NCBI RefSeq assembly: GCF_004010195.1
Contig: NC_057718.1
Location: 49,501,239-49,565,238, forward strand
Direction of reading: 5' to 3'
Length of the DNA: 64,000 nt
From: Chiloscyllium plagiosum
Lineage: Eukaryota
Of the stretch, positions 1,045 to 61,935 are shown piece by piece. The position numbers were made by a program, and so were the translations under genes. Position 1 is the first letter of the stretch; the number at the start of each line of letters is the position of its first letter. The notes under the pieces are model-generated. The model did not search any database and had not been told where the DNA came from. It saw only the letters and a list, made by a program, of their open reading frames with translations.

Positions 1045-1258
1045 CTGGATTAGTGGTGCTGGAAGAGCACAGCAGTTCAGGCAGCATCCAAGGAGCTTCG
1101 AAATCAACGTTTCGGGCAAACGCCCTTTATTCTGATGAAGGGCTTTTGCCCGAAACGTCGATTTCGAAGCTCCTTGGATGCTGCCTGAACTGCTGTGCTC
1201 TTCCAGCACCACTAATCCAGAATCTGGTTTCCAGTATCTGCAGTCATTGTTTTTACCT
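1045..1258. mobile_element. Penelope-like pLTR-derived palindromic short element (family 1) with hammerhead ribozyme motif
   Basis: Inverted arms (tctggattagtggtgctggaagagcacagcag... / ...ctgctgtgctcttccagcaccactaatccaga). CTGATGA-A-GGGC-TTTT-GCCC-GAAACGTC at 1132-1159. Imperfect flanking duplication agagaaagatgttt (1031-1044) / atagaaatatgttt (1259-1272). Confidence 0.8.
1129..1162 (+). ncRNA. Minimal type I hammerhead ribozyme motif
   Basis: Core CUGAUGA and GAAA, 4-bp stem II, ACGU palindromic stem III, UC cleavage triplet end, short stem I (auu/gau). Confidence 0.65.
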
Positions 1259-2614
1259 ATAGAAATATGTTTGTCAGCCCGGCTGTCAGCTGCGAGCCCC
1301 CTCTCACTCTCGGAGCACGTGTCATGATATTTTACACATTTTGTGTTACAATAGTTCAAGTGTCAAGTGTTTGTTTGTACAGCATGATTTGTTTACAGAA
1401 AACATTCCAAAATCATTATCAATTTCAGTGGTCATGATCATTCTTCCTAAGAAGGAAGATCGTTTTTCATGACTGCAGATTTGAAGTATTAACACTTGTA
1501 TTCAAGCAGTCTCAGGTAGCTAACATTTATATTGAAGATGGTGGCTGGACTCGGACAGGTCAGCAGGCAGTAGACGTTACTGATGTGTATTCTTTCCCCC
1601 ATCTGCCTTAGATCTATGCTCTGTGTCTATTGAGCTGGTATCCTGTTACCCATTGGCAGTATCTGGGTATGCTTTGCTTTATTTTTCCATGTAATGGCTC
1701 AGTGGCCATCTTGTGTGCTAAGTTACCAATTTATGGCGCAGCGGCCATCTTGTGTCTGTGTGCTCCATGTCAGCATGCCCCGTGTCAACTCCCACTTCAA
1801 AGGTGATAGCAGATTCAATTGTAACGTTCAGAAGGGAAATCAAATGAAGAATTGATGGGGTGAAAACACGGCAATGGAAAAGAGCAGACAGTGTGTGGCT
1901 AATTGAATATTTCTTTCAAAAAGTTGACAGAGATATGATGGGCCAAATGGTCTCCTATGTTTTTCCAATACCTTTAAATGAAATGATCTCCCAATTGTAG
2001 CTCTTCCTGAAAGCTCTGCACATTTTATTGCTTGTCAGTCACAGACAACAATTACCTTCCTTATACTCTTGCCTCGTTATATCTGACATATTGTGACAAC
2101 TATGGGATCTATGCACATTTGGGCAAAATTCCAAGCTTTATTCAAAATTGCTTCTAAATTTTACCTCAATGCTTCACTTGAATGCCTGGGAGCCAACAGG
2201 CTCCTGTTTCTGCTCCCTTGCCCCTCTGATAACCCCCCCAATGATGGGAAAGATCACAGTGTGAAGATGTGAAGCATTCTCCCACTATTTCCTGGCTGCC
2301 CCGCTTCAGCTCTAGAAAGTTAGAAAATGTAGTAGTGGTTTTTGCAAAGGAGGATCCGCTCAGTTTCCATTGAGCTTGGAAACATTCTGGAATCTCTGTC
2401 TATCTTGCCTGTCCAAGGTTTTTACTTCAGGACATTTGTGAGTGTTTTATATACTGTATTTTAACAGATGTTAGTCCCAGAAACTGCAGCTAATGGAGTT
2501 TACCAAGGAATTGGTGTATGGCCAATACTTTCAAGCAAGTCAGTAAGTGTACTTTTCAAATTGATTTATAAGATATTAAAATTGTTACTCTAATCTATAG
2601 AGCACCAATCATTA

Positions 2615-2766
2615 GGGTGGCACATCGGCTTAGTGGTTAGCACTGCTGCCTCACAGCACCAGGATTCCAACCTTGGGTGACTGTCTATGTGGAGTTTGCA
2701 CATTCTCTCCGTGTCTGCGTGGATTTCCTCCAGGTGCTCTGGTTTCCGTCCAAAGATGTACAGGTG
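2615..2766 (+). mobile_element. HE1/V-SINE-like tRNA-derived SINE, 3' truncated
   Basis: A-box-like ggcttagtggttagcactgctgcctcacagc followed by the core tgtggagtttgcacattctctccgtgtctgcgtggatttcctccaggtgctctggtttcc, which is shared with other copies in the window. Confidence 0.8.
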
Positions 2767-4657
2767 TAAAAAAAGTGTATATTTGTTCTGATATAAATCA
2801 CTACTTGGGCATTGATCATTAGTACAACATGATTTGATATTTGGATAGTTCATTTTCATAATCCATTTAATTCTACTCTTTGATCAAGCTTTTATTAAGG
2901 TATTTTGTTAAATATGTTGTATTGCAAGAAGTAGGTTCTCTGGTGCAGGACAGAAACAAAGTTGGATGCTCTCAATAAACACAAACTTCATTCCAAATAA
3001 GATTAAGAAATAATCATAATTAACATCTAGATTAAACAGTATGAGTTCCACTTGGCTAAAACAATAGGCAAATTGTCAAGTGCTTATACTCAGAAAATGA
3101 TCACCATATTTTAAAGAATAATTGTGAACATTCAGCTCTCTTTAATGGTGCGGTTTGATGGATCAAAACATTCAACTATAACTCATGTCTTGAACAATTA
3201 ATTTCCCCAATGAACTGTAAAACATGTTTGAACATTCAAACTTACCACACATCAGTGAATTTAGGATTACTCCATAGAGTGTGTTAACTTTTAACCTTAT
3301 GTTGTATAAGGAGACATCTGGCTCCAGAAACAGCTGTGCTTGTGTCATAAGGTAAAAGTTTTAGAGCTCCATTGCATCAAATTTATGGGTAATACTTTTA
3401 AACATTGCAAGAAATAAAAGTATGACAGTATTTACTAAATATTTTCTCTTTCTTTTTCTCATAACCACTGTTTATGTCAATAGAAGGCAGGTTAAGTTTC
3501 TATATACTATTCAGTTTCTGTACTGCACCTTCGGTAAATCATTTATCATTACACACAAAAGTTTTTGACATGATCTGACAGCATGCAGGTCTCTATCATA
3601 TTGTCAGTAATATTGGCATCTAATGTTCTATTTGCTGTAGTTAATGGCTCATTCTTTTATTCTTTGAATAAATCAGGAATTTCCATGATTTTGCCCAGTG
3701 TCCTACCAATGAGCAGTTGAACTCTTGTTCTCCATTTCAGTTCTCTATAGATCTCATGGTTTTAGTGGGCAGGACTCCTACTGCACTCTCATTACAATTG
3801 TTGAATCATTATATCTTCCCCTACCTGATATACTTCAATATGGCAATGAAAATTGTTTCCACCTCTAACTTTTCCTGATTAGTGGGCTTCAAGTGGGTGA
3901 GCAGTTAAGTTAGGGAACCACGAGAAGTGGGGGAAGTTCCAATTGGGTGTTGGCTTGAAGACTCATTTAAAAAATACCACCTGCCCACCAACTGATGCTT
4001 TCAACTCAAGATATGTCATCAGTTGGCATCCAAATGAAGCTTGCCTGTTCACACCATGCACTCACATGAAAAATTAACATCAACCCTCCAGACTCACATG
4101 AGGCCTGACCATTTTAAAATATACATCCTTTAGTACTTTTCCCACAGCATAAATCAAATTGTCTGCTTACAGTTACATTAAATATTGATATAGCATATGT
4201 GCATTCCTCACCCTTGAAATATCTCCAGGTTTGGTTTCATTCGCTTTAACAGATATGCCTTAAAGGTTTCTAAAAGGATATTGTCTCTTTTAGATAAACA
4301 CTGAGAGCACATGATTTAGATAAATCTGTCATATTTGTTGGACTTTCTCCACTTAAATGGAAAACAGCTGTTGACTGCTCATTGTCCAGTTGCCCGATAT
4401 CCATCCCTCACAGCTTACATGTTACTGATTCCTGTACATTAACCACACTGGGACTTTTCACTATTATACCCTGTAAAGTTAATACAATCACTGTGAGAAG
4501 ATATCTGGGTCTCTGAGGATAGCAAAAACTGTTATGGAAGTTATGGATGCGTCTGTCATTCTGTTCTAGACATTTATCGATCGAGAGAGAACATTTCCTT
4601 CTCAAGGTCGTGCAGGGAAAGTGCAAAAAACTTACTCAGTTGGATGATCAACCATGA

Positions 4658-4875
4658 GGCAAAAGTGAGGACTGCAGATGCTGGAAACCAGAGTTTAGAT
4701 TAGAGTGGTGCTGGAAAAGCACAGCAGGTCAGGCAGCAGCCGAGGAGCAGGAAAATCGAAGTTTTGGGCAAAAGCCCTTAATCAGGAATTCTGATGAAGG
4801 GCTTTTGCCCGAAACGACAATTTTCCTGCTCCTCGGATGCTGCCTGACTGGCTGTGCTTCTCCAGCACCACTCTA
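4658..4875. mobile_element. Penelope-like palindromic short element (family 1) inserted into a CR1 3' tail
   Basis: Inverted arms; hammerhead core at 4791-4815 with GTC changed to GAC. Perfect 11-bp TSD atcaaccatga (4647-4657, 4876-4886). The host sequence resumes as a CR1-type tail (aatgaatggtggagcacgctcaaaggccgaacgacctactcc). Confidence 0.85.
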
Positions 4876-6930: not shown

Positions 6931-6962
6931 TTAAGCTTGTGCTTTATGCCAATGTCTGCACA

Positions 6963-10025: not shown

Positions 10026-10039
10026 GTTCATTACCTCCC

Positions 10040-11559: not shown

Positions 11560-14130
11560 AGATATCCTACAGTGCAGGGCCAACCACACAAGGTGAGGCA
11601 TCGCACATTAACTGTGGTGCCAACATCAGGTTGAAATGTGTTAACACTTCTGACCTTTTTAAGGCTTGTTTCACCTCCCAGTAAGCCACATCACATTCCT
11701 GGGTCCATTTCCACAGCCACCCTTTTCCCAGCAACTGATGCTAGGATTTTAGCATCGTTCCAGGTCAGACACAAACTTGCCATTGTACCTTGCCAACAGT
11801 GATCTCATTTGAAACACATTATCTGGTCCTTGGACCTTCATGATAGCCTCCATCTTCTTGGGCACCTTATGTAGTCCCTCGCCATCAATTACATGGCCCA
11901 GGTACTCTATGGAGTCTGTAAAAATCTCAGATTTTTATGTTTTTCCTTTAGGCCATGCTCTTTCAATCGCTTTAGGGCTCCATCTAAGTGTTTCAAAATA
12001 CTTCCCTTCAGAGGATCCAAAAATACATCCCGTTAACATTGGATTCCTGGCAACCCACTTAATACTTGATCCACAATCCTCTGGAACAGAGTTGGCACTG
12101 ACATGATGTCAAAAATAAGTCACTTGTAGTGAGAGAGTTCTCTTTGTGCGACTATTGTCTGAAACTGAGACTTTGTTGTGACCTCCATCTGTTGGTGGGC
12201 CTGTAACAGATCCATTTTTGAAAATTTCTTTCCCTCTGCCAGTGTATCGAAGAGAGTATTGATGCGCACTCAGGGCTAGGTTGACTGTGACCTTAATGTC
12301 ATCACAAATTCTCACCGTGCCATCTGTTTTTAACACTGGATGGATGGGAGTGAGTGGCCCACTCACTGATGGTTATTGGTTCCAATGTTCCCAGATTCAC
12401 CAGCCATTCCAGTTCTGCCTCCACTTTCGGCCGGATGGTGTCTGGCACTGGATACACCTTCAGACTCACAGGAAGAGCTAATGGCTTCAGCTGTAAATTA
12501 ATTTTGTCTCCTTTTCCCCAGGGTCCTTTGAAGACAGCTTTGTACTTATCCACAATCTCTTGAAAACTCATGTTTGGGTTTGCAAGCCTATTAACTACAC
12601 TCCAGTTCAACCCTAACTTTTGTAACCAGGGGTGAACAAATACTGCAAGATGTTCACCTTTTATGAAGTGAAGTAGCATTTTTGTTCTCTGGTCCCTTAG
12701 CTGTACTTTCACCAATGCATAGCCCTTGAGTAGCCCCACTTGTTCTGTGTATGTGTAGTATAATCTTGGCAGGCTACAATGGTAGTGCTAAAAATGTGTG
12801 GCGCTAGAAAAGCACAGCAGTTCAGGCAGTATCCAAGGACCAGGACAGTCAACATTTTGGGCATAAGCCCTTCATCGAGAATGGTAGTGCCCTCAATTCC
12901 TCTCTATAGACTGATTCAGGAATCAGGGACACCACTACACCCTTATTCCCTTCCATTTTTGCTATCTTCCCCTCTTCAACGGAATAACTCAGAAATGATC
13001 AGCTTCAGACCGTACAGACAGTATGCTTAATTGAAAATCTGCTGACTCTGAGCCTTGTGGTTCTCCCACAGACCCGGCTGACTCACGGCCTACCCCCTGG
13101 TAGCTGGCATGTACCTTTGGTCTTGTCCTCAGGGTTGATTCTTTCCAAGTTTGGGTTTGGGTTGTTTCTGGCAATTTCGGGCAATATGACACACTCGCTT
13201 ACACCTCCGCCACTGGGTTTCTCGAGTCGTTGTCACCTTATGGCCACTCTCACCATATTGGTGGCAGACTCCAGTTAGCACCACAACCTGCCGAATTACA
13301 ACTACTAGATGCACCCAGGTGTCATCAGCCAACTGGGGTGTTTTGCTGTTGGCCAACTCTGCCAAGATAGCAATTTTGAAAGCCAACTTGAAATCAGGTT
13401 TCTCCTTATTAGTAGCTTCCATTGGATGACTTCAGCTCAGAGGCCACAAACCAAAGGGTTCCAAAAAGCATCTTGGAGGAGCCCTCCAAATTCACGGTGT
13501 TCTATTAACCTCTTTAAGGCAGCCCTGAATTGGGCTATGAACTCTTCTCCTTTCTGTACCCATTTGTAAAAACGGAAACATTCTGAAATCATCAGCAGTT
13601 TGTGTATAGAATGTCTTCTCCGCAGATTTCTCTGGTTGCATCAGATTCCTTTGAATTACAAAAGTCTGAAGAAAACTGGTACCAATATTGTCCTCAGCTA
13701 CTTTGTTCACCTTTAAGGATGAAGTGCTCCTTGTACAAAATCCAGTTTCCTGACTCTTCATCAAGTGATTCTAAATTGTCCCATCATTTTGTTTTCTTGT
13801 CATTTGAATCTAGTAGCTGTTTCCAGCCTTTGATGAATGCTCTCGGCGTTGGCCATTCCCTTCATTAGCTGTGCTAACATACTGCACCCCCCGGCACTGC
13901 CTACAGCCCGAATCCCATTGCAACAGCTCTCAACAATGACTCTGCTTTCAGCTCACTCTCCGGTGAGTACTTTCTTTTCTGACATCGACTGCAGACCGAT
14001 TCCCCTCAATTTTGCTTCCCTTGACATTACCTCCTTAATCCTACACCATTTCTGAGGTCCAGGTGGTGTCTGCTCCCAAAAATTACTGGCGTTTGCACAC
14101 AGTTCTTGGGCCAGATCCCACTCTTGTCAT
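11560..14130 (-). mobile_element. Ty3/Gypsy LTR retrotransposon internal remnant (gag-protease-RT-RNase H), frameshifted
   Basis: Minus-strand fragments: gag zinc knuckle RRCKRVCHIARNC; protease/linker GYALVKVQL...WLQKLGLNW; RT start VPDTIRPKVEAELEWLVNLGTLEPITISEWAT, LKTDGTVRICDDIKVTVN; RNase H CDASP near 11600. Many stops and frameshifts. Confidence 0.85.
12789..12879 (-). mobile_element. Monomeric PLE family-1 mini-insertion nested in the Gypsy remnant
   Basis: aaaagcacagcagttcaggcagtatcc...gggcataagcccttcatc with a perfect 11-bp TSD aatggtagtgc (12778-12788, 12880-12890). Decayed hammerhead at its right end. Confidence 0.8.
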
Positions 14131-14149
14131 ATAAGGACAGAAGATATCT

Positions 14150-14428: not shown

Positions 14429-14528
14429 CAACAAAAAAACACAAGGTGCTGGAAAAGCTCAGCAGGAGGCAGCATCTGTGAAGAGAAATCAGGGTTAAAG
14501 TTTCGGATGCGGTGACCCTTCCTTAGAA
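14429..14528 (-). mobile_element. Short hammerhead-bearing PLE-like element (family 3)
   Basis: Reverse complement agttctaaggaagggtcaccgcatccgaaactttaaccctgatttctcttcacagatgctgcc. Perfect 11-bp TSD ctagtaaagtg (14418-14428, 14529-14539). Confidence 0.75.
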
Positions 14529-15311
14529 CTAGTAAAGTGAAAAGTGGGTGAAAAATAATAGTAAATATAAAAAAAAGGATACAAAGTGGTAGGTAATGAA
14601 AAATTTGTTTAAATTAGGAGCCTAATGATATTTATTTGAACAAGCTCGAATGATTTATTAGTCAGATGGAGGTGGGGAGAGCAATCAAGATTAGCACAGC
14701 TCTTTCTGTGCACTAATGCAGCTTCATATTCATTACCTGATAACTCACATTAAAGATGAATCAAAGATACAGCAATGAAATAAGGGATTTGAACCCAAGA
14801 GAACTCATTAATCTTTGGATGTTCTTATTGAAAGAAATGAATAAAACATTTCTGTCAGATCTAAAAATACCTGATCAAATATTACTGTGAACAGTAACTG
14901 AAGAAATCAAGAATATTCCAGCCGAAGAGGAAATATATTGATCCTCTCCAATATCCGCCCATATTACATATAATATACGGACACATACACTCCCAATACA
15001 TATTGTGCACATGGTACACAGTCACCTTAAAATTTATACATAGATATTACACAAATATGCACATAAGTACCCAAAAGGATCTACAGATATTATAGATGCT
15101 CACACGGTAAATTGAACGGTGACATGAATGCATGCCATATGCTGTACAGAATAGGAAAGTTTGAGATAATTCACTTTAGGTCTAAAAAAGACAATTTGGA
15201 ATATATTCTTCATAGTGAGAGTTTGGCAACTGTGGACGAACAGAGCAATCCTGTTTTCCATGAACACAAATCACTCAAAGATCATGTACTCCTTTATCTT
15301 TGATCTGTATC

Positions 15312-15780
15312 AAGAGTGCGGTGCTGGAAAGGCACAGCAGGTCAGACAGCATTGGAGGAGCAGGAGAATCAATGTTTCTAGCGTTACCCCTTCATCAGGA
15401 ATGAGGTTTGTGGGCTGGGGGGCTGAGAGATAAATGGGAGGGGGAGGGACTGAGAAGGTAGGTAGCTGAGAAGGAGGGAAGGTAGCTGAGAATGCAATAG
15501 GTAGATGAAGGCGATAGGTCGCAGAGGAAGGTGGAGCCGGTGGATGGGAAAGACAATGGACCGGTCAAGAGGGCAGTGCCAAGTTGGAAGCAGGCACTAA
15601 GGAAGGAGATGTGGCTGAGGTAATGAGTCTGCTTCAGGATGTGGCTGAAGAGCTTCAGGGCAGAGGAGATAACCTGGGGGTGCAGTAAGATAGATTCACT
15701 GAGATTCTTGTAGAGAGAGGAGGAAAACTTCTTCAAGGTAAACATCCTTAGAAGAGGCTTTGCAGTAAGGTTATAACCAA
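15312..15780 (-). mobile_element. Internally deleted PLE family-1 copy (ORF 5' end joined to 3' pLTR)
   Basis: Minus-strand ORF LKLFSHILKQTHYLSHISFLSAC resembles a PLE N-terminal H..FL..C motif. It is followed by a pyrimidine-rich UTR and a decayed hammerhead at about 15365-15402. Confidence 0.7.
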
Positions 15781-18700
15781 CTACAAGAAAGTGTAGACTA
15801 CAGATGCTGGAGATCAGATATAATCAACTAAAGGAAAGTGTATCCCTGACTTACAACACGATCAGAAATGGGGTTGTGCAATTTTAAGTTAAGTTCTGAT
15901 ATGCCTGAAGTATTAGCTTTACTTCCATCTCTCCATAGATTCTTCCTGACCATCTTAGTGTTTTCATCATTTCTGTATTTATTTCAGATTTCCAGAATCT
16001 GCAGCATTTCGCTTTTTTGTTGTATGTTCTATAAATTAAAATGCAGGCGCTTTCTGAAGCATTTTGAAATGTCAAGTTCTTAGCTATGAAGATTAGATCA
16101 CAAATTGCATCAAAGAAATGTATAACTGCTTCAATGCATGCAATCATTCCTTAAAGATTTACTATTGCCTTTTAATGAACTGACCCAGCTTATCACATCA
16201 ATTCAACTTCCTTTGCTTGGATTTAGAACAAAAAAGTCAACTCTCTTTGTACATCAACAATTTCTAATCTCTCAAAGTAATAAATTCATTTGTGAAAGGG
16301 ATGACCAAGAAACTGACATAATTGTAAACAATAAACTATGAGAACAGACTCAAAAGACCAAAAAATAATTGTAAATGTTCGTGCAAGTTAAAATGGCCCT
16401 ATTAAAGGCAGACCAAATTAAATTACAATTGGACGTAAAGAATAGATAGATACTAAACAAATATTTTGCATAACTTTGCATATTTGTGGTTGGAGAATAT
16501 TCCAGAACTGATAGTGAGAAAGAAGAATATAAATAAATTAGTAAAATTTAGAACAAAAAGAAAGCAAATAATTAATGGGACAAAGTGGCGACAATCTACT
16601 CTATCTGATGATTTGCATATTAGGTTGCCTGTTGGCTAGGTTTTAAGAAACAGAAGCTGTAATATATCTTATTCTACAACATTCCCCAGGGATCAGAAGA
16701 TAACAAACACAACCCCCCATTATTTACAAAAGGCAGAACAGAGAAAGTGGAAAATTAAAGATTAGTTAGCCTAACATCAATAGCTTTTTGAGGAAAAGCT
16801 TTTACTTAAATTCTGGTAAGGATTTAGAATACATCCTTCCCTCATGTTGAGGTGGATGCAGATTTGAATCAGGGTTCAAAAGGAAATAGGACATATTCTT
16901 GAAAAAAGCAAAGGAATGAATTGGTGACGAATGGATGTTAGAGGTGGGAATGACTGAATTTCTCTTTGAAAGAACTGTCCAGAGTAAGGGGTTGAATGCT
17001 CTCATTCTGCGCTACTCCACATTGTTAGACCAAAAACGCACAGCAAAGGCACCAAGGCTAAAATGGATTGACTGGGGAAATAAAGGCTCAAAAACATGAA
17101 TCACCAGGGCCAATAATTTCTCTCCTTAACTTATATGTAAATATGGATTCAATTAAATGGGGGATTTTCAAGCTGATTACAATAAGTGGGACACCTCAGG
17201 GACAGTACTTGGGCCTCAACTAAATCTATATCAATGACTTGTATGAATGAACTGAGCATAATACATCCAAAGTTCCAGCTGATACATTGTCAGCAAGAAA
17301 AACAAATAGTGAGGAGAACACAAAGAGGCTGCGGTGATAGATCAATAGGTTGGGTAAATTTTAAAGACATAACAGATGGAATGCATGACTGAATTTTACA
17401 CTAGGGTGGAATTCCTGACCCTGCAGCTTAATAATTGACAAAATCCAGGCTGGCCACTTATCTGTCCACCAGTCTGTCAGGTTTCACTCATCGAGTTGGA
17501 CTCATAGTGCTGCTGTGTCCTTCCACTGGTGAAATTGCAGTGGGGAACAGTGGGACACAGAGACAATAGCCACAACACAATTATCATAGCTCTGAAACTT
17601 ATTGCACTCTACCTACTATTCCCAGGTAAAAATATAAAATTAACCACTCTGATGGGAAAAGTTAAAAAAGTAAATTATTTTCTAAATGGTAACAGACATT
17701 TCAGAGATATATTGACTGTTGGCTGCAAAGACCTGCAACCCAAGTCTACAACAAAAACAAGGCCATCAGTTTCAAATACCTTTGCCACCGGATCCTTGCA
17801 GGCAACATTTCATGAACAATGCCAAACTACTCAGGTATATCAAAAAAAAGGTTACTGCTGTTCCATTTAAAAGGATTGAATAAATAACATTTTCAATTGG
17901 AAGCTAGCAAATAAAAGGACAGATATCCAATTCTATACACTGCCAAGGTTCTCACAGGTGAAAGGAGTAATTGGTAGAATGTGTGGAATACTCAAAACCT
18001 CATTTATCATCTCCTTCAATCCTCTGACCAGAAAAGGTTTTTAATCCATTACTGTGTCACTGGTATGTTAGAATGGTTGTCTTACCCTGAATGTGAATGC
18101 CTGTTACACAAATGGCTATCATGATGCTTTCAACTCTTGACAGCCCACTATGCCATCCTTTATGCATCAAAATGGTTGACTGATTGTCAAGCCTATTCCC
18201 TGCAGGCAAAGTTTATTTTACTACACATTGTTCTCTTGCAGTCAGGAAAAATAATACACTGAGACCCAAGCCAGTATTATGAAAAAGGAAATGCTTACAT
18301 TGACTTACATCTTTTGTGACATGCGCACACAAATGTAGTAGTACCTTTAAAGGAATACAGGAAATACTGGATAAAACTTGTGGTGCCCTGTAATACAGCA
18401 GAGGAAACAAACATGCAGAATTATTGTCATCACCAGTGTACCGCATAAAACTACAAAGGAGAGATTTGCTACTTTCAGAAGCTGAACATGGGGATGGGAA
18501 AATCCTTCCTGTCCACAGAATAATTACACAGGGGCAGATAATGTTGAACAGGAGAGAAAAAAACCCAAAAAGAAACACAATGAATAAAGTTGACTTTTAA
18601 GGTATGATCATTTCATACCTACCTTCCTTTAATGCCTTACAAAGCCGCTCACTGTCAAAGATTTTTAATTGTTTTATTCATAAAAAGGAAATTCTGTGCT

Positions 18701-23720: not shown

Positions 23721-24002
23721 AATTAGATTTTCTACAGTGTGGAAACAGGCCCTTTGGCCCAACAAGTCCACACCGACCCTCCAAAGAGTATTCTCCTACA
23801 TTCACCCCTGACTAATGCACCTAACACTAAAGGCAATTTAGCATGGCCAATTCACCTAACCTGCACATCTTTGGAAAGAAACCCACACAGACACGGGGAG
23901 AATGTGCAAACTCCACACAGACAGTGACCCGAGGCAGGAATTGAACCAAGGTCCCTGGCACTGTGAGGCAGCAGTGCTAACCACTGAGCCACCGTGTTGC
24001 CC
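23721..24002 (-). mobile_element. HE1/V-SINE-like SINE, near full length
   Basis: Reverse complement gggcaacacggtggctcagtggttagcactgctgcctcacagtgccagggaccttggttcaattcc (A and B boxes), core, and CR1-derived tail. Confidence 0.9.
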
Positions 24003-24221: not shown

Positions 24222-24320
24222 TAAAAACAGAAGTTGCTGGAACAGCTTAGCTGGTTTGGCAATATCTGTAGAGAGAAGTCAGAGTTAATGTTTTGAGTCA
24301 AGTGATCCTTTCTCAGAACT
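24222..24320 (-). mobile_element. Family-3 hammerhead-bearing short element, decayed
   Basis: Reverse complement agttctgagaaaggatcacttgactcaaaacattaactct..., homologous to the 14429 and 44215 copies. Confidence 0.6.
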
Positions 24321-38069: not shown

Positions 38070-38371
38070 TAACACCTTCAGCATTTTATCTGGGCTGACA
38101 CCAATTGTTACAGTTAACCTGAGAATGTGACTTTTAAAAAAGTTTTGTGATTTACATATGAAAGAAGGGAAACTAACATGGTCATTAACAAACAATCAAG
38201 GTATTTTTCAATGCATAATTTCAGTTACATCACACTGTAAACCTTTGCTATAAATTCTGTATCTTACAATTGTGTACTCCACAACCACCTGATGAAGGAG
38301 CAGCGCTCCGAAAGCTAGTGCTTCCAATTAAACCTGTTGGACTATAACCTGGTGTTGTGTGATTTTTAACT
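38070..38371 (+). mobile_element. PLE family-2 pLTR fragment with intact hammerhead motif
   Basis: High similarity to 55830-56150 of the larger PLE. Confidence 0.85.
38286..38320 (+). ncRNA. Minimal type I hammerhead ribozyme motif (family 2)
   Basis: CAC-CTGATGA-A-GGAGC-AGC-GCTCC-GAAA-GC-TA-GTG: stem I CAC/GTG, 5-bp stem II, palindromic AGCT stem III. Predicted cleavage after A38317. Confidence 0.75.
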
Positions 38372-40029: not shown

Positions 40030-41620
40030 TATACTTCGCCTCTGGGAAAGGTTGGACTTGAACCCAAATCAAAGGTCGGGACACTACCATGACACCACAA
40101 GACCCTTTTAGCTGATTACAGTTATTTTAGTCAACAGTGGCAGGTAGACTTGAACCTGGACTTCTGAGTCAGAGGTAGGGACGCTACCACTGAACGACAA
40201 GACTATTAAAAGGACATGGTTTTCTTCATACATGAAACATAGCAATTCTTTTCTTATCAATCAATCTGTTCAACCATGTTATAGTTCACCACCACAGCAT
40301 GTGACACTTGAACCTAGATCTTCGAGCCATTTTCCAACACCTTTCAGTTCTGAAGATGTCATATCAGATGTCATAATTAAAACATTAACTAGGTTTCTCT
40401 CTCCACAGATGCTGTAAAACCTGCAGTATTTCTTGAGAACATTCTGTTTTTATTTCAGATTTCCAGGTATTTAGCTTTTATTCCCCTACCTCAGTGGAAG
40501 AAACACTGCCAATTCGCCACAAGATCCTTGTAGTTGATTATAAAACTTTTGCTTCCAATATGCTCTTAATTTAAACAGGAACACTGTCCAGCATTGCTGC
40601 CTTATAGCACCAAGGACCAAGGTTCAATTCCCGCCTCGGGACTCCCCATGCCTGCATGGGTTTCTTCCAGGTGCTCCGGTTTCCTCCCACAATCCAAAGG
40701 GCCTGTTTCCGTACTGTAGGGAATCTAATCTAATCATCATTCACTAGTCTGCACCTTATTAAAGAACAATTCTCTTGTATGCTTAATTACCTCTGATTTG
40801 TGTCAGATTATAGTTTAAACTACTCTGCACTGACTGTAATGTTCAAGCTTGTTCAATAAATAAGTAGCTCCTTGTGGAAATCCAATTATCTTGTATACTT
40901 AATCTTGCCTAAATGCTCTGGATTTACAGTTTTGCTCAATAATGGCACATATAGTGAACAAGTCTTGTTTGCACCATTGCACTCATTGTAAACAATGGCC
41001 AATATTATTGCTGCCTGAGGAGAGCTTATTACCAGAGATAAAAGGGGCTAATTTGATTGAACCCCAAAATTAAGCATCATGTATATTTCAGCTACAACTG
41101 CTCAGAGTGATGCGGGCAGTAAAAAAACTTGAGGGCCCCTTTTGTGCCACATAGGTAGAATCCCAACATTTGGACCAAGAGATCCAGTTCAAATCCCACC
41201 TGTTCCAGGGGTGTATCATAACATCTCTGTGCAGGTTGATTAACAAAAAGGTTAAACAAAAATAAGAAAATGTGAAGGGCCCCCATGTGATGAAATGGGA
41301 GTGTTCCCATCTTTCAGCCAGGGGCCCCAGTTTCTACTGCCACCTGCCTCTGATGTGTTATAACAGGTTGATTAAACAACAAAAACAACTATGGGTTACC
41401 TGTAAGAGATTTAGTATTGGCTATGTCCAGAAGGGGTTCTGGTGGTGATGTGATGCAGCCATGTTTGCTAAGCATACATGTAGAGACAAAATCTTTGGGA
41501 GTCTTGTGATATAGGGGTAGTTGGACTGAGAGACCCAGATTCGAGTCCCACTTCATCCATAGGTTAAAAAAACAAATAAAAGAAAACTTGAAGGGCCCAC
41601 TTGTGGTGCAATGACACCAA
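40030..41620. repeat. Two oppositely oriented clusters of tRNA-head-like repeat units
   Basis: Minus-strand units near 40030-40108, 40130-40205 and 40480-40530. Plus-strand units near 41131, 41274, 41496 and 41590. They share ggg..cttgtggtg...ggtag...ccc...ggttcaagtcccacct. Confidence 0.6.
40585..40735 (+). mobile_element. HE1-like SINE with internal deletions
   Basis: agcattgctgcc...ggttcaattcccgcctcggg...ggtttcctcccacaatccaaagggcctgtttccgtactgtagggaatctaatct. Confidence 0.75.
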
Positions 41621-44170: not shown

Positions 44171-44214
44171 ATGCTGTGCACATTCTGAAACCGTATCACT
44201 TTTCTCTTCATAAA

Positions 44215-44347
44215 ACCCAAAAGGATTGCAGATACTTTAAATCAGAAACAAATACAGACATTGCTGGAGAACCTCAGTGGGTCTCACAGCATCTGTGGAG
44301 AGAAATCAGAGCTATTGTTTCGGGTTGAGTGACCCTTCCTCAGAACT
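44215..44347 (-). mobile_element. Family-3 hammerhead-bearing short element
   Basis: Reverse complement AGTT-CTGAGGA-A-GGGT-CACTCA-ACCC-GAAA-CAAT-AGCT...ctctccacagatgctg; core intact, stem III mutated. Confidence 0.7.
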
Positions 44348-44384
44348 GTTCTGTTTCTTTGTGTACTCTCACTTTATAATATTG

Positions 44385-45262: not shown

Positions 45263-46069
45263 TGTGACAATACTGCTCCTTTGACAATGATATGGAGGAG
45301 CCGGTGTTGGACTGGGGTGGACAAAGTTAAAAAGCTACATAACACCAGGTGATAGTCCAACAGTGCTCCGAAAGCTAGTGCGTCCAAATTGACCTGTTGG
45401 GCTAGAACCTGGTGTTTTGTTATTTTTAACTTTGCTCGTTTTATGTTGTCCTTGGTGTTTTTTCAGAGAGGTAGTAAAAACAGCGATTCCAAGTCTGTGT
45501 TGGATGGGTTTTAGGACCAATTTGATTATAGCTAACAGACACTGCCTCAGGCAGAAGGGTTTCAAATATATACAAACACTGGTGCAATGAAAGGGGAGGG
45601 CCAGTTCTCCTAGCTCAGTTTTATCTCTGGTTTGATTTGGTTTTTGGCAGTCTGGCTATTCACTGAAAGCAGTCAGGAAGTTTGAGGCTGCTGGTCCAAG
45701 AAACAGCTATACTGAGAGGGTGTTCCATGCTGCCATCTCTGACTTCTCTCCTGTCAGACCCTGTGTTTTATTTTCCCTTTTGTGTCAAGGAGTGTTTATG
45801 GGATTGTTGCAAATATTTGGAAAAGCATCATTAAGTGGGATGATCTGTTGGGTTTTTAGATAGTTTAAGTTATTCAGTATTCTGTTCTCTTTTATTTGTG
45901 TTTCATTCAGTAATCTTGTAAATAAATTCCGTTTTGTTTAAAATAAGTGGTTTGCCCAGCTTCATCTCCCCTGAGATATCCATGTTACACCTGCTTAAAA
46001 CAACTTGCAAAGTTAGGGTCTAGGCTACTTTCTTGAAATGTTTGAAGGAGTCTGGCCTGGCGCATAACA
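45263..46069 (+). mobile_element. Solo LTR containing a nested PLE family-2 palindrome
   Basis: TGTGAC start, TAACA end, AATAAA near 45920, 3' motif aagttagggtctaggctac. Confidence 0.65.
45290..45435. mobile_element. PLE family-2 palindromic short element
   Basis: caaagttaaaaa...aacaccagg...gtccaacag and gctccgaaagctagtg...cctgttgg...aacctggtgtt...tttttaactttg form inverted arms; the 3' half of the hammerhead is at the centre. Confidence 0.75.
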
Positions 46070-50810: not shown

Positions 50811-51077
50811 CAGTGTTGCAGCTACAATAACCTCTAGCAGTGAGGCCAACTTTCTCTTCTTGAAAGAAAGGAATGGCCATTGGATACTCAATTAACTTAC
50901 AGCCACTAGCAATATGTTGACTGACCCAGTTATGACATCAGGTTATTATCACCTGATATTAATACTTCAGAACCTATTCACAGCACTATTTCAGGCTAGG
51001 TAATCAGTCGATGGGAACATTCACTTCACATCATTTAAATTTGTTATTTTTTTCTCTTTGATGATCACCACATCCAT

Positions 51078-51427
51078 AGGGTGGCATGGTGGCTCAGTAG
51101 TTAGCACTACTGCCTCACAGTGCTAGGGATCTGTGTTTGATTCCAGCCTTGGGTGACTGTCTATATGAAGTTTGTGTTTTCCCTATGTCTGCATGGGTTT
51201 CCTCCTGGTGTTCTGGTTTCCTCTACCAGTTCAAAGATGTGCAGATTAGGTGGACTGACCGTTGCTCCATAGTGTCCAGGGATGTGCTAGCTAGATGGAT
51301 TAGCCATGGGAAATACAGGGTTATAGGGAAAAGGTAAGGGTGTGGATTTGAGTGGGATACTCTTCAGAGAGTTAGCGTGGACTCACTGGACTGAGTGGCC
51401 TGCTTCTATGCTGTAGGGATTCTATGA
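51078..51427 (+). mobile_element. HE1/V-SINE-like SINE, full length
   Basis: ggggtggcatggtggctcagtagttagcactactgcctcacag head, core, and tail tgctgtagggattctatg. Confidence 0.85.
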
Positions 51428-51856: not shown

Positions 51857-51935
51857 AGGTAAAACAATGACTGCAGATGCTGGAAACCAGATTCTGGATT
51901 AGTGGTGCTGGATAAACTGCTGTGCTCTTCCAGCA
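51857..51935. mobile_element. Very short inverted PLE family-1 insertion
   Basis: Perfect 15-bp TSD ccagaaaaactaata (51842-51856, 51936-51950); the arms match the 1045-1258 element. Confidence 0.85.
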
Positions 51936-53536
51936 CCAGAAAAACTAATAGCCTAATCCACAAATGAATCAGAGTTTGACAGTGAGAGCTGAATGTCAGG
52001 CAGTGCTGCATGACTGAATATTTATGCTACTGTTTTCTTTTCAGGGTTGCAGGACAATTTTAATCATTTTAGACTCTAATCCAGAGAAGATAATAAGGAA
52101 ACAAGACAGTTGACACTTTAGAGAGCAAAGGAACTGGAGGACATTTGCTCAGAATTAACTTTGCATTGAATGTTGTTTCTAATTTTATTGGCCACTGAAT
52201 TTTTAGTGTAATCATCTCAAAGTCAAATCCCTAATACGTCAGCAGAAACCATCATTGTTGGATTTTTTTTTGTGACTGCCTCCTCCCTTCCCATTGTGAC
52301 TGAGAAAGGATGTAATTTCATTGGGATTCCTGCTGATCTCATAGGCCGTGGAAGATAATCAGCAGAAGCCACTGCAGAAGTTATTAGAATCAGTATTACA
52401 ATTTATGCAAAGATGGATTTTTTTTGAGAAACTACTTGCATTGGTTTTCTAACTCACAGAAAGGTCACGTTACGTGGCAGGATGAATTTACCATTTCCTT
52501 TGGCCTTGCATTATTTTGTCATTTAACAATTGTCTTCAACTGTATCACTGATTCAGTTAGATTAGCGAGTACAGTCTGCTGTTTACAAATCTGTGCTGAC
52601 TCTCCTCAATTAACTCAAAACTCTCCAGTGCTGATTAATTTTTTTTCTTTATGATTGCTTCTAAAAACTTGTCAACCACTGATATTGAATTAGCTGAGCT
52701 GGAGTTGAGAAGGATGTTCTGTCCACTTTCATGATTACATGTATCACATCTCTTGTTCATCAATCATTTGGAGCCTTCCCACTATCTAAGGAATCTTAGG
52801 AGATTACAGTAAGTCCTTCTGCTCTCTTGACTATCACATTCTTTAGAAATCTGGGATCCAAGCCACCTGAACCAGATGACATGTCCACTGTTAGTTCTTA
52901 GCCACTCTTTCCATTATGCCTTTCCAATCAATTTCAGCTCTTTCATTGCCTTTACCATTGTCACTTATACCAACATTTTGTAAACATCCTTTTCCTTAGT
53001 AAATAAAGCACAAAGTCTGGTCTTGCTCTAAGCCTTCATGCATAGACCACCTTTTTCTCCCCAATAAGATCCATCTCTTCCGACCAGACTTACATTTGCA
53101 TACTGATAGAAAACGTTTTTATGTTGGCTATCATTCTATTTCTATATTTAAAGACCATGACACCGTAAGATATCAGAGGACAATTAGACCATTTGGCCCA
53201 TCAAGAATGTTTCACCATTCATTCATGGCTGCTAATGTTTCTCTGTCCCATTCTGCTTCTTTCAGTAGGGCCTCATACATACATTAAAATCAGGGAAATG
53301 AAATTTGATTCCTGAAGCCATTTTACTAAGACGTTGTTGCAGCCCTGATTACTGCCTGTGATTCCAAATTTTGCTGTACTAACCTCTTAAAGAAGCCATT
53401 TTATTAAATCAGATAGATGCTGTTCTGCAAATAGAGCATTGTACCAAAAACCAGTGAACTAGCATAAAGTCATCGAAGCAACTAAGGTAATAAACAGAAA
53501 TACCTCAAAAGTGGGAAATCCTAACAAAGGAAAAGA

Positions 53537-54425
53537 CATAGATTCATAGAGTCATAGAGATGTACAGTATGGAAACACACCCTTCGGTCCAACTCGTCCA
53601 TGCCAACCAGTTATCCTAAGCTAATCTAGCCCCTTTTGCCAGCACCCAGCACATATCTCTCTAAACCCTTCCTATTCATGTACCCATCCAGATGCCTTTT
53701 AAATAATGCAATTGTACCAGCGTGCACCACTTCCTCTGGCAGCTCATTCCATCCACGCATGAAAATGTTGCCCCTTAGGTCCCTTTTATATCTTACCCCT
53801 CTCAACCTGAACCTATGCCGTCTAGTTCTAGACTTGCCCACCCCAGGAAAATGACCTTGTCTATTTATCATATCCATGCCCCTCATGGTTTTATAAACCT
53901 CTATAAAGTCACCCCTCATCCTCCGATGCTTCAGGGAAAATAGCCCCGGCCTCTTCAGCCTCTCCCTATAGCTCAAACCCTGGCAACATCCTCGTAAATC
54001 TTTTCTGAACACTTTCAAGTTTCACAACATCTTTCTAATAAGAAGGAGACCAGAATTGCACACAATATTCCAAAAGTGACCTAACCAATGTCCTGTACAG
54101 CCGCAACATGACCTCCCAACTCCTGTACTCAACACTTTGACTAATAAAGGAAAGCATACCAAACACCTTCTTCACTACCCTATCTACCTGCGACTCCACT
54201 TTCAAGGAACTATGAACCTACATTCCTTGGTCTTTTTGTTCAGCAATACTCCCTAGGACCTTTCCATTAAGTGCATAAATCCTGCTTTGATTTGCTTTTC
54301 CAAAATGCAGCATCTCACATTTATCTAAATTAAACTCTATCTGCCACTCTTCAGCCCATTGGCCCATCTGATCAAGATCCTGTTGTACTCTGAGGTAACG
54401 TTCTTTGCTGTCCTCTACACCTCCA
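53537..54425 (-). mobile_element. CR1 LINE 3' fragment
   Basis: ORF 53626-54018 LSYRERLKRPGLFSLKHRRMRGDFIEVYK...WNELPEEVV...FKRHLDGYM; (tatgactc)n tail. Confidence 0.92.
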
Positions 54426-54719
54426 AAATCCCAAGTTCATCTGAGAAGCAAACTCCTGGAAATGTAATCACATTAAAAACATGCAGCTTTCTGAGAATCT
54501 TTCAATTTACAAAGTTAAAAACCACACAACATCAGGTTATAGTTCAACAGGTTTATTTGGAAGCACTAGCTTTTGGAGTACTTCTCCATCAGGTGGTTGT
54601 GGAGTATAAGATCATCAGGCACAGAATTTATAGCAAAAGTTACAGTGTGATTCACTGGGATCACTGCCGGCATCTTGAAAGAATTCCTGGAGTCTTATTG
54701 GCCTGATGAATTTCTCAGT

Positions 54720-55271
54720 GCCTGCTGCATTTTGGTGGTGGGGCAGAAATTGAGATGCCTGCTAAGAATTTCAATCTCTTCTGGTTGAAGGGTATGGCCT
54801 GATAAATTGACGATTGACTTCCCCGCAGTGATAACATTATTCACTGTGGTGCCAGGGTGGGCTTGGCTACTGCTAGTGGTGATGCCAAGTTTCTCCACTT
54901 TCTTGTTCTTGGCGTGCATGTACGTAGTGTAGTTTTGTCGCTTTGCCTGTTTGGCAATGTCCCATAGCTGTACCGCTGTATCCTGAGTCAGGCTGAGAGT
55001 GTGGACTCCATTTTAATTTCAAGGTTGTGGCATCTGCTGTCGAGTTGGTGCACAAGATGATTGAGGAGTTTGCGAGAGTTGCGTGGCAAAGTCTCTCCAT
55101 GTATTCTGTGTTGTCAGTCGACTTGAGCGTGTTCATGATCTGTAATCCTTTTGGGATCTTTCCTGCTTTCCTGCATTTCTGTAGAAACTTGATGTCTATG
55201 TCAATATGTGCGATCTTCTTGGAGATCCTCTCCAGTGTAAGCCGGCAGTTAGTGGTGTTGATGGTAGTCAT
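54720..55271 (-). pseudogene. PLE polyprotein N-terminal fragment
   Basis: MTTINTT...KKIAHIDIDIKFLQKCRKAGKIPKGLQI and, after a frameshift, SIVNLSGHTLQPEEIEILSRHLNFCPT (the PLE pre-RT VNLS...L...E..L.KGLNF.P motif). Confidence 0.8.
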
Positions 55272-55350
55272 GATTTGGAGATGCTGTTGTTGGACTGCCG
55301 TTGTTGCCGTTGTACAAAGCTAAAAATCACACAACACCAGGTTATAGTTA

Positions 55351-55617
55351 TGGTACATCGGCAAGACCAAGCAGAGGCTATGGCAATGGATGAACGGATG
55401 CCGCACAACAATCAACAGACAGGAGTGTTCCCTCCCAGTCAGAGAACATTTCAGCAGTATAGGACATTCAATCTCGGACCTTCGGGTGACTGGTTTCCAA
55501 GGCAGACTTCGGGACAGGCAACAATGCAAAGTGGCCGAGCAGAGGCTGATAGCCAAGTTCAGTACCTACAGGGATGGCCTCAACCAGGACCTTGGATTCA
55601 TGTCACACTACAGGTGA
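55351..55617 (+). pseudogene. PLE GIY-YIG endonuclease C-terminal fragment
   Basis: WYIGKTKQRL...MNGCR...VREHF...H...DL...AEQRLIAKFSTYRDGLN. Confidence 0.85.
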
Positions 55618-56063
55618 CCCCACTGCACTATATACAGACACACACACACACACACATCCATGTGCACACAAACACAGATACATTTGTGGGGTGAATTTGT
55701 ACTTGCAGAATTACATTTTATTTTGCTCAAAAACTACATGAATCCATGTAAGATTCTGTAAATCTGTTTTGTTTTAGATTAGAATTAGTCTGAATATTGT
55801 GGCACAGACAGTCTCACTTTGGGCACCTCACACCTTCAATGCATTATCTGGACTGACATGCCACTGATTGTTAAAGTTCACTTGAGAATGTAACTTTAAA
55901 AAAGTTCTGAGATTTACACATTAAAGAACTGAAACCAACATGCTCATTCTAAAAGATGAGAGAATTAACAAACAGTCCAAGTCTTTTTCAATATATAATT
56001 TCAGTTACATCATACTGTAAACTTTTGATATAAACTCTGTCTTACGATCTTATACTCCACAAA

Positions 56064-56098
56064 CACCTGATGAAGGAGTAGTGCTCCGAAAGCTAATG
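56064..56098 (+). ncRNA. Hammerhead ribozyme motif (family 2) in the PLE pLTR
   Basis: CAC-CTGATGA-A-GGAGT-AGT-GCTCC-GAAA-GC-TA-ATG; one stem I mismatch. Confidence 0.6.
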
Positions 56099-57132
56099 CC
56101 TCCAAATAAACCTGTTGGTCTATAAACTGGTGTTGTGTGATGTTTAACTTTGTACACCCCGGTCTAACACTGGCAACTCCAAATCAATTTACAAGGCATA
56201 CACTTTATATAAAATGTCATCTAAGAAACTACAGGCCTGCCCTGAAAGAGACAGCAACAACTAGAAGTTGTAACTTTATTTTATCTTTTATATTCTATTA
56301 TGTTATTTCATCATATTGTATTTGTCTACATTAGTGTGTGTGTGTAAAATAATGCTTTATTTCAGGATACGTGTGTGAGAATAAATAATCTTTATTTTAA
56401 GTCTCATAAAAAAAACTTGCTGTTGAACATTTTAATTAAGCATGAAATCTAAAGTGAAGAGGATAGTCACCTGTTAAATGCAAGCATAATGATCAGAGGT
56501 AGTAGAGGGGAATAGATCAATTTTGACCTTGGCTATATGCTCATTTCCCACTTTGTGCTGAGTTATAAAGGTGAACATGTTGAGCAGCCAGAGATGTAAT
56601 ATCACATGATGAAGTCTGTTTCAACCAGAGCTGATCACCCACCAGGCAAGAAAATCTGGGTTAAAATCTAGGGTGTTTTTTTTTCTTTTGAAGGTCAGTC
56701 ATATCACCCATTGTTTAAAATTTTAAGTTATGTTTTCATTCACATAAGCCTTTATTTAAAGACAATTAGTGTAAAGGTAGTATTATCTTGGATTATAGGC
56801 CTGCATTTCTTTTGGATTTGTTGACCTTAAAATGTCACATCTAACTCAGTTTCTTGTAAAAGAACGTTTATATGAAACAGACCCAGTTCTCTTCTCAGCA
56901 AACGTATCTTTTCTAAAATTAAGCAATTCAATGGTTTTAACATGATAAGTTAGACATCAAAAATGCACCAATTATCTTAGAACTGAGTAGAGAGAAATTT
57001 ATAAATTATTACGGTATTGTTAAATTTTGGTGAAAATATGTTGGATTTTTATAAGTTATTTAAAATAATTTTATTGGTAAATATTCTTGTTCATACACTA
57101 TTTGTGTACACGGTGGCTCAGTGATTAACACT

Positions 57133-57316
57133 GTTGAGAGTGTGTTGCTGGAAAGGCACAGCAGGTCAGGCAGCATTCAAGGATCAGGAAAATCAACGTT
57201 ACGGGCCTGAAACATCGATTTTCCTGCTCCTCGAATGCTGCCTGACCTCTGTGCTTTTCCAGCAACGCACTCTCACCTCTGATCTCCAGCATCTGCAGAC
57301 GTCACTGTCTCCTAGT
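57133..57316. mobile_element. PLE family-1 palindromic short element nested in the SINE head
   Basis: Perfect 11-bp TSD tgattaacact (57122-57132, 57317-57327); inverted arms centred on hammerhead stem II. Confidence 0.85.
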
Positions 57317-60208: not shown

Positions 60209-60209
60209 T

Positions 60210-60965
60210 AGAGTCATTGAATCATACAGCATGGAAACAGACCCTTCAGTCCAACCAGTCCTGAAGAACATAATCCCAAACTAAACTAGTCCCACCTGCC
60301 TTTTCCTGGCCCATATCATCTTTCCTATTCATGCATCCTTCCAAATGTCTTTTAAATGTTGTAATTGTAACCGCATCCATCACTTCCTCAGGAAATTTAT
60401 TCCACACACGAAGCACCCTCTGTGTAAAAAACTTGCCTCTTATATCTTCTTTAAGGCTCTCTTTTCTCACCTTAAAAATTTCTCACCTTGAAATTTTCTA
60501 CCTTGAAATTCCTCATCTTAGGGAAAAGACTATCCCTCCCCCTATTTTATACACTTTTATCAACCTCTCAACCTCTTACACTCCAGTGAAAAAGTCCTAG
60601 CCTATCCAACCTTTCTTTATAACTCAAAACTTACAAATCCGGCAACATCCTGAAAAATCTCTTCTGAACACTCTCCAGTTGATAATATCCTTCCTATAAC
60701 TGGGCGACCAGAACAAAACACAGTATTCCAGAAGAGGCTTCACCAATGTACTGTACAACTCAATATAATATCCGAATTCCTTTACTCAAAGGACTGAGCA
60801 ATGGCTGCAAGCATACCAAAGGCCTTTTTAACCACCCTGTCTATATGTGATGCAAACTTTAAATAATTATGTACCTGCACCCCTAGGTCTCTCTGTTCTA
60901 CAACACTATCCAAGGCCTTACCATTAATCGTGTAAGCCTTACCATTGTTTATTGCAATAAAATGC
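60210..60965 (-). mobile_element. CR1 3' fragment nested in the older CR1
   Basis: ORFs AYTINGKALDSVVEQRDLGVQVH...DRVVKKAFGML and GKFFTQRVLRVWNKFPEEV...FKRHLEG. Confidence 0.88.
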
Positions 60966-61189
60966 AATGGAAAGATTACTTTTGTTAAAGGATAATGAGT
61001 GATTGGAACTCTCTTATTGAAAAGATGGTGAAAGCTGAGTTTTTGAATACTCTTATGCAAGGAGTGAAAGTTTATTAAATTTAAGTGGGAATATGGAGTA
61101 ATCAGGTTAGCTGTGATTTTATAGAATGGTGGAGCAAACTCAAGAGGTTGAGTAGCCTCCTAATTTGTGTACTTGCATCTGTTCATAAT

Positions 61190-61935
61190 TCATTTATCGT
61201 AAGATATTTTGCTGGAGTTGTGCAGGGAGTTAGTGAGAACACATCTGGAATGCTGTGTACAGTTTGGACCCTTTGCTTAAGAAAGGACATAATTTTGTTA
61301 CAAGCAATTTACTCAACTTATTTCTGGATTGAATGGTTTGACATATGAGCAAAATTGGATAGGTTGTGCCTGTTTAGAAGAATTAAAATGTGAGGTAAAA
61401 ACAAGGACTGCAAATGCTGGAAACCAGAATCTAAATTAGAGTGGTGCTGGAAAAGCACAGCAGGTCAGGCAGCATCCGAGGAACAGGAAAATCGACGTTT
61501 CATGCAAAAGCCCTTCATCAGGAATAGAGGACCGAAACATCGATTTTCCTGCTCCTCGGATGCTGCCTGACCTGCTGTGCTTTTCCAGCACCACTCTAAT
61601 CTAGAATTAAAATGTGAACCTATTTAAACATTGAGAAATAGTAGACTCAATTTAAAACAACAATATCTCCTATTTGGGTTATGGGTGAAGAAGATTTTGT
61701 TTTACTCAGAAGGTTATCGGTACATGCATGCATGAATAGGGTGGAATTCTTTTCCTCAGAGGTCACTAAAAGCAGGATCATTGAGTATTTTTAAGGCTGA
61801 GTTTGATAGATTCACAATTAACAGGGAATAAAAGTGTATAAGGGATAAAGTGAAAGTAGAATTTACCTAGAATCAGATCTGTCACTCAGGGGCATGGAAC
61901 AAATGGTCCACTTGTGACTCTAAATATTATGCTTG
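61190..61935 (+). mobile_element. Old CR1 fragment split by a PLE palindrome
   Basis: cacatctggaatgctgtgtacagtttggacc (HLECCVQFG); ttttactcaga...ggaattc...; CR1-like tail. Confidence 0.6.
61394..61602. mobile_element. PLE family-1 palindromic short element
   Basis: Perfect 15-bp TSD agaattaaaatgtga (61379-61393, 61603-61617). Minus-strand hammerhead attcCTGATGAagggcttttgcatGAAACGTCgatt at 61490-61525. Confidence 0.88.

Follow-up and report, generated by a model that had tools for sequence, protein, structure and literature searches.

Hammerhead-bearing repeats of Chiloscyllium plagiosum as probable ends of Penelope-like retroelements

A 64,000-nucleotide stretch of the Chiloscyllium plagiosum genome (contig NC_057718.1, positions 49,501,239 to 49,565,238; hereafter the window) raises the question of why several repeat families with different stems should share one hammerhead ribozyme (HHR) architecture. 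The first-pass annotation, which described three independent families, overlooked the identity of the repeats: on sequence grounds, all three are identified as pseudo-long terminal repeats (pLTRs) of Penelope-like retroelements (PLEs). We consider it very probable that they are PLE pLTR ends carrying a minimal type-I hammerhead, predicted to be slow and dimer- or protein-dependent, and that the copies are neutrally decaying stubs, likely derived from uncut RNA.

The assignment comes from the open reading frames (ORFs) beside the repeats. Each family is found downstream of the C-terminus of a GIY-YIG endonuclease. In the window, the plus strand of 54508–56186 carries, in order, such a C-terminus, a 3′ untranslated region (UTR) and the family 2 hammerhead at 56067, while on the minus strand lie a pLTR end and, with a frameshift, the N-terminal part of the ORF to which this C-terminus belongs; both ORF parts match an 881-aa reverse transcriptase (RT) protein at 45–56%. 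Elsewhere, family 2 shows a partial tandem pLTR-ORF-pLTR layout at four loci (L051, L053, L054 and L055), with an RVT_1 domain in the L051/L053/L055 set (E = 3.5e-9), and L053 and L055 span a homolog end to end with broken frames, the homologs carrying both RT and GIY-YIG. No complete pLTR-ORF-pLTR layout was seen for families 1 and 3. In family 1, a related endonuclease lies upstream of the repeat at L005, L012, L186–L188 and L191 (GIY-YIG E = 1.6e-4, slightly below the Pfam threshold; 150 of 96,400 first-look candidates genome-wide were scored), and family 3 follows a third endonuclease in three of 30 loci (L064, L069, L084). The best relatives of the family 1 protein are in Chiloscyllium punctatum (84%), whale shark (67%) and zebra shark (63%). 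Most of the long apparent open frames among the candidate loci proved to be broken or to consist of N stretches.

In families 1 and 2 the endonuclease is preceded by a CX4CxxC linker, which was not seen for family 3. Linkers of the form CX2-5CxxC are assigned to Neptune and Nematis, not Poseidon (Craig et al. 2021, PMC8557442), and by this motif the elements would be Neptune-type, with Nematis as the alternative. As a separate observation, long stretches of the PLE ORF match ray and turtle gene models that bear host gene names (P0126, P0189; P0028–P0030); these models may be exonised elements or annotation artefacts.

Hammerhead motifs had been named at nine window positions. CTGAnGA...GAAA cores or decayed forms of them are indeed present at all nine, but the motif is intact at only three (core starts 1132+, 29131+ and 38289+), where it satisfies a strict minimal HHR (min-HHR) descriptor (CUGAnGA, stem II of at least 4 bp, GAAA..UH, stem I of at least 2 bp). 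The others are broken by ACGA in place of ACGT (4791+), GCAT on the stem II 3′ strand (61521−), a C-A as first stem I pair (56067+), ACAA in stem III (44343−), a CTAAGGA core (14490), or CTGAGAA and AAAAC (24283). Two of the motifs had also been misread: ATTC/CTGATGA at 1129 lacks one C and is ATT/CTGATGA, and the copy at 44310 has AGCT in place of AACT. As a chance control, the descriptor was run on 50 shuffled windows and gave a mean of 0.1 matches, none of them palindromic. An Rfam scan of the window gave no covariance-model match to a hammerhead family at E ≤ 1; its weak miRNA-hairpin matches are an effect of inverted repeat pairs. The window holds 30 pLTR segments, which we group into about 19–20 insertion events, so that the first estimate of roughly 15 related insertions was too low.

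The pLTR bodies of families 1 and 3 align at 72–79%, and these two families are thus homologous rather than independent; the family 2 body gave no alignment with either. Because the families attach to PLE endonuclease ORFs and the family 1 and 3 bodies are so alike, the hammerhead motif is apparently shared by descent. The palindromic stem III noted for families 1 and 2 is present, but is not limited to them: among 38 family 3 copies we counted ATGT in 10, ACAT in 10 and ACGT in seven, the symmetric CpG decay of ACGT, which was thus the ancestral form there too. Further lineages, F4 and F5, were found outside the window.

For a wider view we took 100 stretches of 10 kb from contigs C1–C35, at fixed positions (948,874 non-N bases, small contigs not sampled), which yielded 60 strict motifs versus none in reversed sequence and 0–1 in five shuffles. 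The core CUGANGA and GAAA...UH are invariant across lineage majorities, and the G10.1-C11.1 pair occurs in six of six groups. Among the 60 sample matches, the unpaired base between 9 and 10.1 is A in 59 and C in one (the scan tried the bulged form first), and stem III is palindromic in 47, as ACGT or AGCT with CpG decay. Helices I and II vary in compensatory fashion, with three or four pair types at I.1–I.3 and II.2–II.4. Across five lineage majorities, 32 of 35 variable cells are paired, compared to a mean of 16.8 under permutation; none of 200,000 permutations reached 32, and when 120 strand swaps were tested, only the true lineage assignment attained this pairing. The unpaired cells are the U-U at I.3 in family 1 and ACAT in F3 (family 3; CpG decay of ACGT) and F5. 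These data bear out one hammerhead-type architecture with compensatory stems across families. The further step, from covariation to a functional RNA structure, holds in part: the stems are kept between lineages, but selection acts on source elements, and inserted copies decay neutrally.

A covariance model built from six family 1/3/5 copies missed the window family 2 sites at E ≤ 2 and matched family 2 elsewhere weakly (E 0.016–0.12). Pair counts on the model-fitted alignment (89% paired, 0/500 shuffles) were circular and included weak matches, and are not relied on; a structural alignment of all lineages was not obtained with MAFFT. Some variants were noted in passing. F4 (L125, L139, L160, L176 and others) has U at the bulge and a different endonuclease type upstream, whose appearance we take to be Poseidon-like; in the variant listed most often, the 6-bp stem II contains an A-G mismatch. 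A rare fifth hammerhead variant, related to family 3, has the stem II GAGTC/GACTC (L111:2317–2358, minus strand; L098; L121). In family 2 (window 38230–38371 and 56010–56150), the stretch preceding the core shows partial complementarity to the pLTR body that follows, and may form another fold in which stem I is concealed.

Insertion anatomy was analyzed on 354 segments from the sample and the window, 152 of which lie in inverted pairs. All 76 pairs are head-to-head, with none in the opposite arrangement, and 71 of them have exactly one long arm, with a 35–40 nt extension or tail (p = 3e-16). Flanking duplications of at least 8 nt were found for 43 of 75 pairs and 13 of 73 solo copies, compared to 0.8% of 2000 mismatched controls, and their length peaks at 14–15 nt (18 of the 43 duplicated pairs). 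Palindromes of about 200 nt with flanking duplications, as many of these insertions are, would also be expected of miniature inverted-repeat transposable elements (MITEs), DNA transposons whose shape would imitate a hammerhead by chance. However, the two arms end at fixed but unequal points, inner junctions and duplication lengths differ from insertion to insertion, and the arms join RT/GIY-YIG ORFs; together with the 60 motifs against 0–1 in controls, this leaves a MITE-like origin with practically no probability, the ORF linkage in itself refuting it.

The 5′ ends of the copies were compared for the 330 segments of families 1–3, the 24 segments of F4 being dropped. Relative to the core, 138 ends fall at −10 to +5, and 70 of them at −5 to −2, versus 2.4 per nt at +6 to +50; at the predicted cut site no pile-up was seen (6 ends, 7.25 expected). 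Copying probably took place on uncut template RNA, given that copy 5′ ends cluster at the start of stem I and not at the cut site. Among the 63 solo copies in the pile, upstream DNA is unshared in 57, shared in four and abuts N in two, and the ORF-leading pLTR of L051 begins at −3. TATAAA lies at −38 to −40 in eight of 10 family 2 copies, and is visible in five family 3 loci with UTR outside the sampled copies. Ten apparent F4 starts near −2 were discarded as an artefact of a second F4 subfamily, eight of them sharing upstream DNA. A splice acceptor behind the −5 to −2 starts was also rejected, since an AG is suitably placed in family 3 alone and the copies have no upstream DNA in common. Likewise, an origin of each inverted pair from two unrelated RNAs was rejected, as the arms concur at 241/260, 34/37 and 26/33 diagnostic sites, compared to 55–58% for random copies; one source lineage for both arms, as one RNA or two sister RNAs, is favoured.

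These ends also bear on whether the repeats are non-autonomous, retrozyme- or SINE-like (short interspersed element) units that cut themselves by their hammerheads, circularise and reinsert. Most copies are short and ORF-less with starts near the core, and animal retrozymes have been argued to come from PLE pLTRs, one chondrichthyan genome having some (Li et al. 2026, bioRxiv 10.64898/2026.07.22.740005). On the other hand, there are no tandem HHR arrays in the window and just 14 same-strand neighbours within 600 nt among the 354 segments of window and 0.95-Mb sample, 5′ ends show no excess at the cut site, stubs lack the upstream TATA where one exists, and a continuum runs from stubs to ORF-bearing copies. 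We thus regard this possibility as very improbable.

The reading as PLE stubs suggests the following course of insertion. The element RNA would begin 2–9 nt before CUGA, at the 5′ edge of stem I, and RT would prime internally at two sites about 35–40 nt apart, at about +85–95 and +120–130. Priming within the 5′ pLTR would run off at the RNA start and leave a 90–130 nt stub, and priming within the 3′ pLTR would give longer, 5′-truncated copies; nicks on both target strands would generate the inverted pairs and the target duplication. Selection on the motif would be confined to active source elements, where its role is probably a slow, ribonucleoprotein-dependent processing of tandem transcripts. 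Transcripts of D. virilis Penelope begin within the upstream pLTR (PMC2377424), and for an anole PLE it was reported that RT primes in vitro at two internal sites defining the tail, that both strands are cut and extended with insertion from unprocessed RNA, and that the hammerhead cleaves only with protein present (PMC11167929); for metazoan min-HHRs, monomers were described as inactive and dimers as weak (PMC4209133). Fold-back self-priming, as proposed by Arkhipova et al. 2013 (PMC3846280), accounts for the inverted pairs equally well. A bolder version, which we think unlikely, is that the million PLE stubs are the fossil record of a transposition intermediate, in which the initiator also forms the 5′ strand of stem I, reverse transcription takes place on uncut RNA, both strands are primed by an RT dimer at two fixed positions and two RNAs are held together in that dimer by the palindromic stem III, the hammerhead being chiefly a dimerisation or timing device and not a unit-length processor.

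If templates appear uncut, the motif could have been retained as a protein-binding, promoter or RNA-pairing element with cleavage lost. Hammerhead mutants of the anole PLE left in vitro insertion unaffected, with no RNA-seq ends at the cut site (PMC11167929), and here stem I has just 2–4 bp and family 3 has U17. Nevertheless, all catalytic positions and an H at N17 are kept in five lineages with unalignable flanks, and cleavage has been reported for related PLE hammerheads when dimeric or aided by the protein of the element (PMC4209133, PMC11167929). A purely non-catalytic role is thus improbable in our judgement.

Genome-wide (3.56 Gb), exact patterns gave 80,723 copies of family 1, 18,037 of family 2, 444 of family 3, which is an old family, and 9,395 of F4, or 108,599 in total, with zero for all reversed controls. 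In the 0.95-Mb sample, 324 pLTR segments make up 4.3% of bases, and extrapolation gives about 213,000 intact motifs (163,000–275,000) and about 1.15 million segments. The very large number of motifs anticipated from the window is thus confirmed.

Such abundance, with some 210,000 intact motifs, could be taken to mean that dispersed hammerheads serve the host, for example through cleavage of intronic RNA, and that selection maintains them once inserted. In the 57 copies extending at least 30 nt upstream, however, rare non-CpG changes are equally frequent in core (19/570, 3.3%) and flank (81/2370, 3.4%; p = 1.0), CpG in the core has decayed (12 of 57), and there are about 60 intact motifs per 173 motif-spanning segments. 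Inverted pairs take up 152 of the 354 segments, and the three window pairs that were folded form hairpins paired over 75–83%; most copies are broken, solitary or locked within long hairpins. These data support neutral decay of inserted copies, with selection acting on source elements. Folding gave the hammerhead dimer no advantage, and the inverted pairs adopt long hairpins; inactivity is thus predicted for most of the genomic copies. Although a few may have been domesticated, a general host function is extremely improbable.

Several observations weigh against the PLE reading or parts of it. In a coarser decay test the core was more conserved than the flank (21/570 versus 184/2826, p = 0.009), as host function would also have it; this test retains differences between minor subfamilies, and we read the gap as subfamily variation in the flank. 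The hammerhead was the sole minimum-energy fold in one of four monomers and tied in another, and the stem III dimer was the cofold minimum in none of four. The 15 long loci contained no gap-free, stop-free full-length ORF. The covariation test is partly circular, because its seeds were chosen by a pairing descriptor, and F5 contributes three seeds. The 5′ ends are BLAST alignment ends, accurate to a few bases. Finally, TATAAA occurs in 0/25 family 1 and 0/2 sampled family 3 copies, and an initiator (Inr) match at −4 is found in the F1a, F1b and F3 consensuses and not in F2.

The architecture, with its extra base before stem II, G10.1-C11.1, a palindromic 4-nt stem III and many covarying families, is that of the min-HHR class of Cervera and De la Pena 2014 (PMC4209133), as is the location in pLTRs; every architectural feature listed in the first-pass annotation is already described there. 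Stem II has 4–6 bp here versus 7–8 bp in Schistosoma min-HHRs, and the at least 108,599 exact copies compare to about 9,000 in Xenopus tropicalis and about 4,000 in coelacanth, counting methods differing; the count is thus roughly tenfold or more above the Xenopus figure. No shark was found among the min-HHR hosts in the available text of that paper. With Neptune-type PLEs that carry the endonuclease (EN+; PMC8557442, PMC3846280) the elements share RT with C-terminal GIY-YIG, the CX2-5CxxC linker, 5′ truncation, inverted pLTRs, a 30–40 bp tail at one end, target duplications, and TATA and Inr-like motifs in some pLTRs. In contrast, duplications peak at 14–15 nt here versus 8–10 in rotifer examples, and very short double-arm stubs predominate.

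Likeness to PAc, a Poseidon element of Anolis (Frangieh et al. 2024, PMC11167929), includes a pair of fixed 3′ ends that correspond to two start sites of RT, unprocessed-RNA insertion, and cutting and extension of both target strands; the PAc ORF begins inside the hammerhead, whereas that of family 2 begins about 120 nt downstream, and families 1 and 2 carry a zinc-finger linker absent from Poseidon. Animal non-LTR retrozymes (bioRxiv 10.64898/2026.07.22.740005) are similar in their type-I HHR, PLE origin and non-coding nature, but are defined by tandem units each with an HHR, whereas copies here are solo or inverted. Our literature search found no paper on shark PLE hammerheads, although the supplements of PMC4209133 and of the retrozyme study may list such motifs; a whale-shark paper mentions Penelope. 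The kind of element is already known, copy number and a likely uncut template RNA being what stands out, and the main value lies in scale and testability. Fixed starts, two fixed ends and 14–15 nt duplications give precise predictions on the role of PLE hammerheads and on how inverted insertions form. In genome annotation, such palindromes are best recorded as PLE ends and kept apart from MITEs and miRNA hairpins. Their positions in the window are collected in Table 1.

Table 1. Putative PLE-derived features of the window (window coordinates)
Feature	Positions	Strand	Remarks
Family 1 head-to-head pLTR pair	1043..1258		minus arm 1043–1130, plus arm 1124–1258 with tail
min-HHR, strict pass	1129..1162	+	core 1132, predicted cut 1159/1160; 1-nt deletion shifts stem I register
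Family 1 head-to-head pair	4657..4872		both HHRs broken; 11-nt flanking duplication at 4647 and 4876
Family 1 solo stub	12791..12883	-	start at −5; 11-nt flanking duplication
Family 3 solo stub	14435..14530	-	core decayed; 11-nt flanking duplication
Family 1 copy with 53 nt of 3′UTR	15322..15451	-	stem II broken; tail piece 15786–15818
Family 3 pLTR fragment	15928..16003	+	without HHR
Family 3 solo stub	24223..24320	-	core decayed
Family 3 head-to-head pair	25510..25693		decayed
Family 1 head-to-head pair	27231..27397		
Family 1 solo stub	29126..29220	+	start at −5; 10-nt flanking duplication
Intact min-HHR, family 1	29127..29162	+	stems I and II 4 bp each, ACGT, C17; predicted cut 29158/29159
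Family 1 insertion	32750..33061		3′UTR piece and short inverted piece; 15-nt flanking duplication
Family 2 3′UTR and pLTR	38036..38371	+	TATAAA about 40 nt upstream of core
Intact min-HHR, family 2	38286..38320	+	stem I 3 bp, stem II 5 bp, AGCT, A17; predicted cut 38317/38318
Family 3 pLTR fragment	40380..40466	+	
Family 3 solo copy with tail	44210..44348	-	start at −5; stem III U16.1 mutated
Family 2 head-to-head pair	45287..45434		without core
Very short family 1 head-to-head pair	51857..51938		15-nt flanking duplication
Single broken family 2 Penelope-like insertion	54508..56186		5′ part inverted; 11-nt flanking duplication partly overlapping element ends
PLE ORF, N-terminal ~210 aa, frameshifted	54648..55271	-	tblastn to 881-aa RT homolog, 45–48% identity
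PLE ORF, GIY-YIG endonuclease C-terminus	55351..55617	+	56% identity to homolog residues 794–880; 79% to L055 copy
Family 2 min-HHR opening the 3′ pLTR	56064..56098	+	first stem I pair broken
Family 1 head-to-head pair	57133..57314		without core; 11-nt flanking duplication
Family 1 head-to-head pair	61393..61607		minus-strand HHR (core 61521), stem II broken; 15-nt flanking duplication

The window also contains other features. A CR1/L2-like reverse transcriptase of a long interspersed element (LINE), presumably HER1, lies at 19856–20872 on the plus strand (RVT_1 E = 1e-20), with fragments at 53626–54021 and 60782–61159 on the minus strand. An abundant tRNA-like SINE family, which we take to be HE1, occurs at 2600–2763, 23722–24006, 38912–39153 and 51063–51424; ARAGORN found no tRNA. 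On the minus strand, a decayed pol fragment, presumably Gypsy-like, was recognized by eye at 12302–12787, with no Pfam match. Lastly, a stop-free frame of 121 aa at 231–593 on the plus strand, of protein-like composition and without Pfam or PDB matches, is possibly a host exon.

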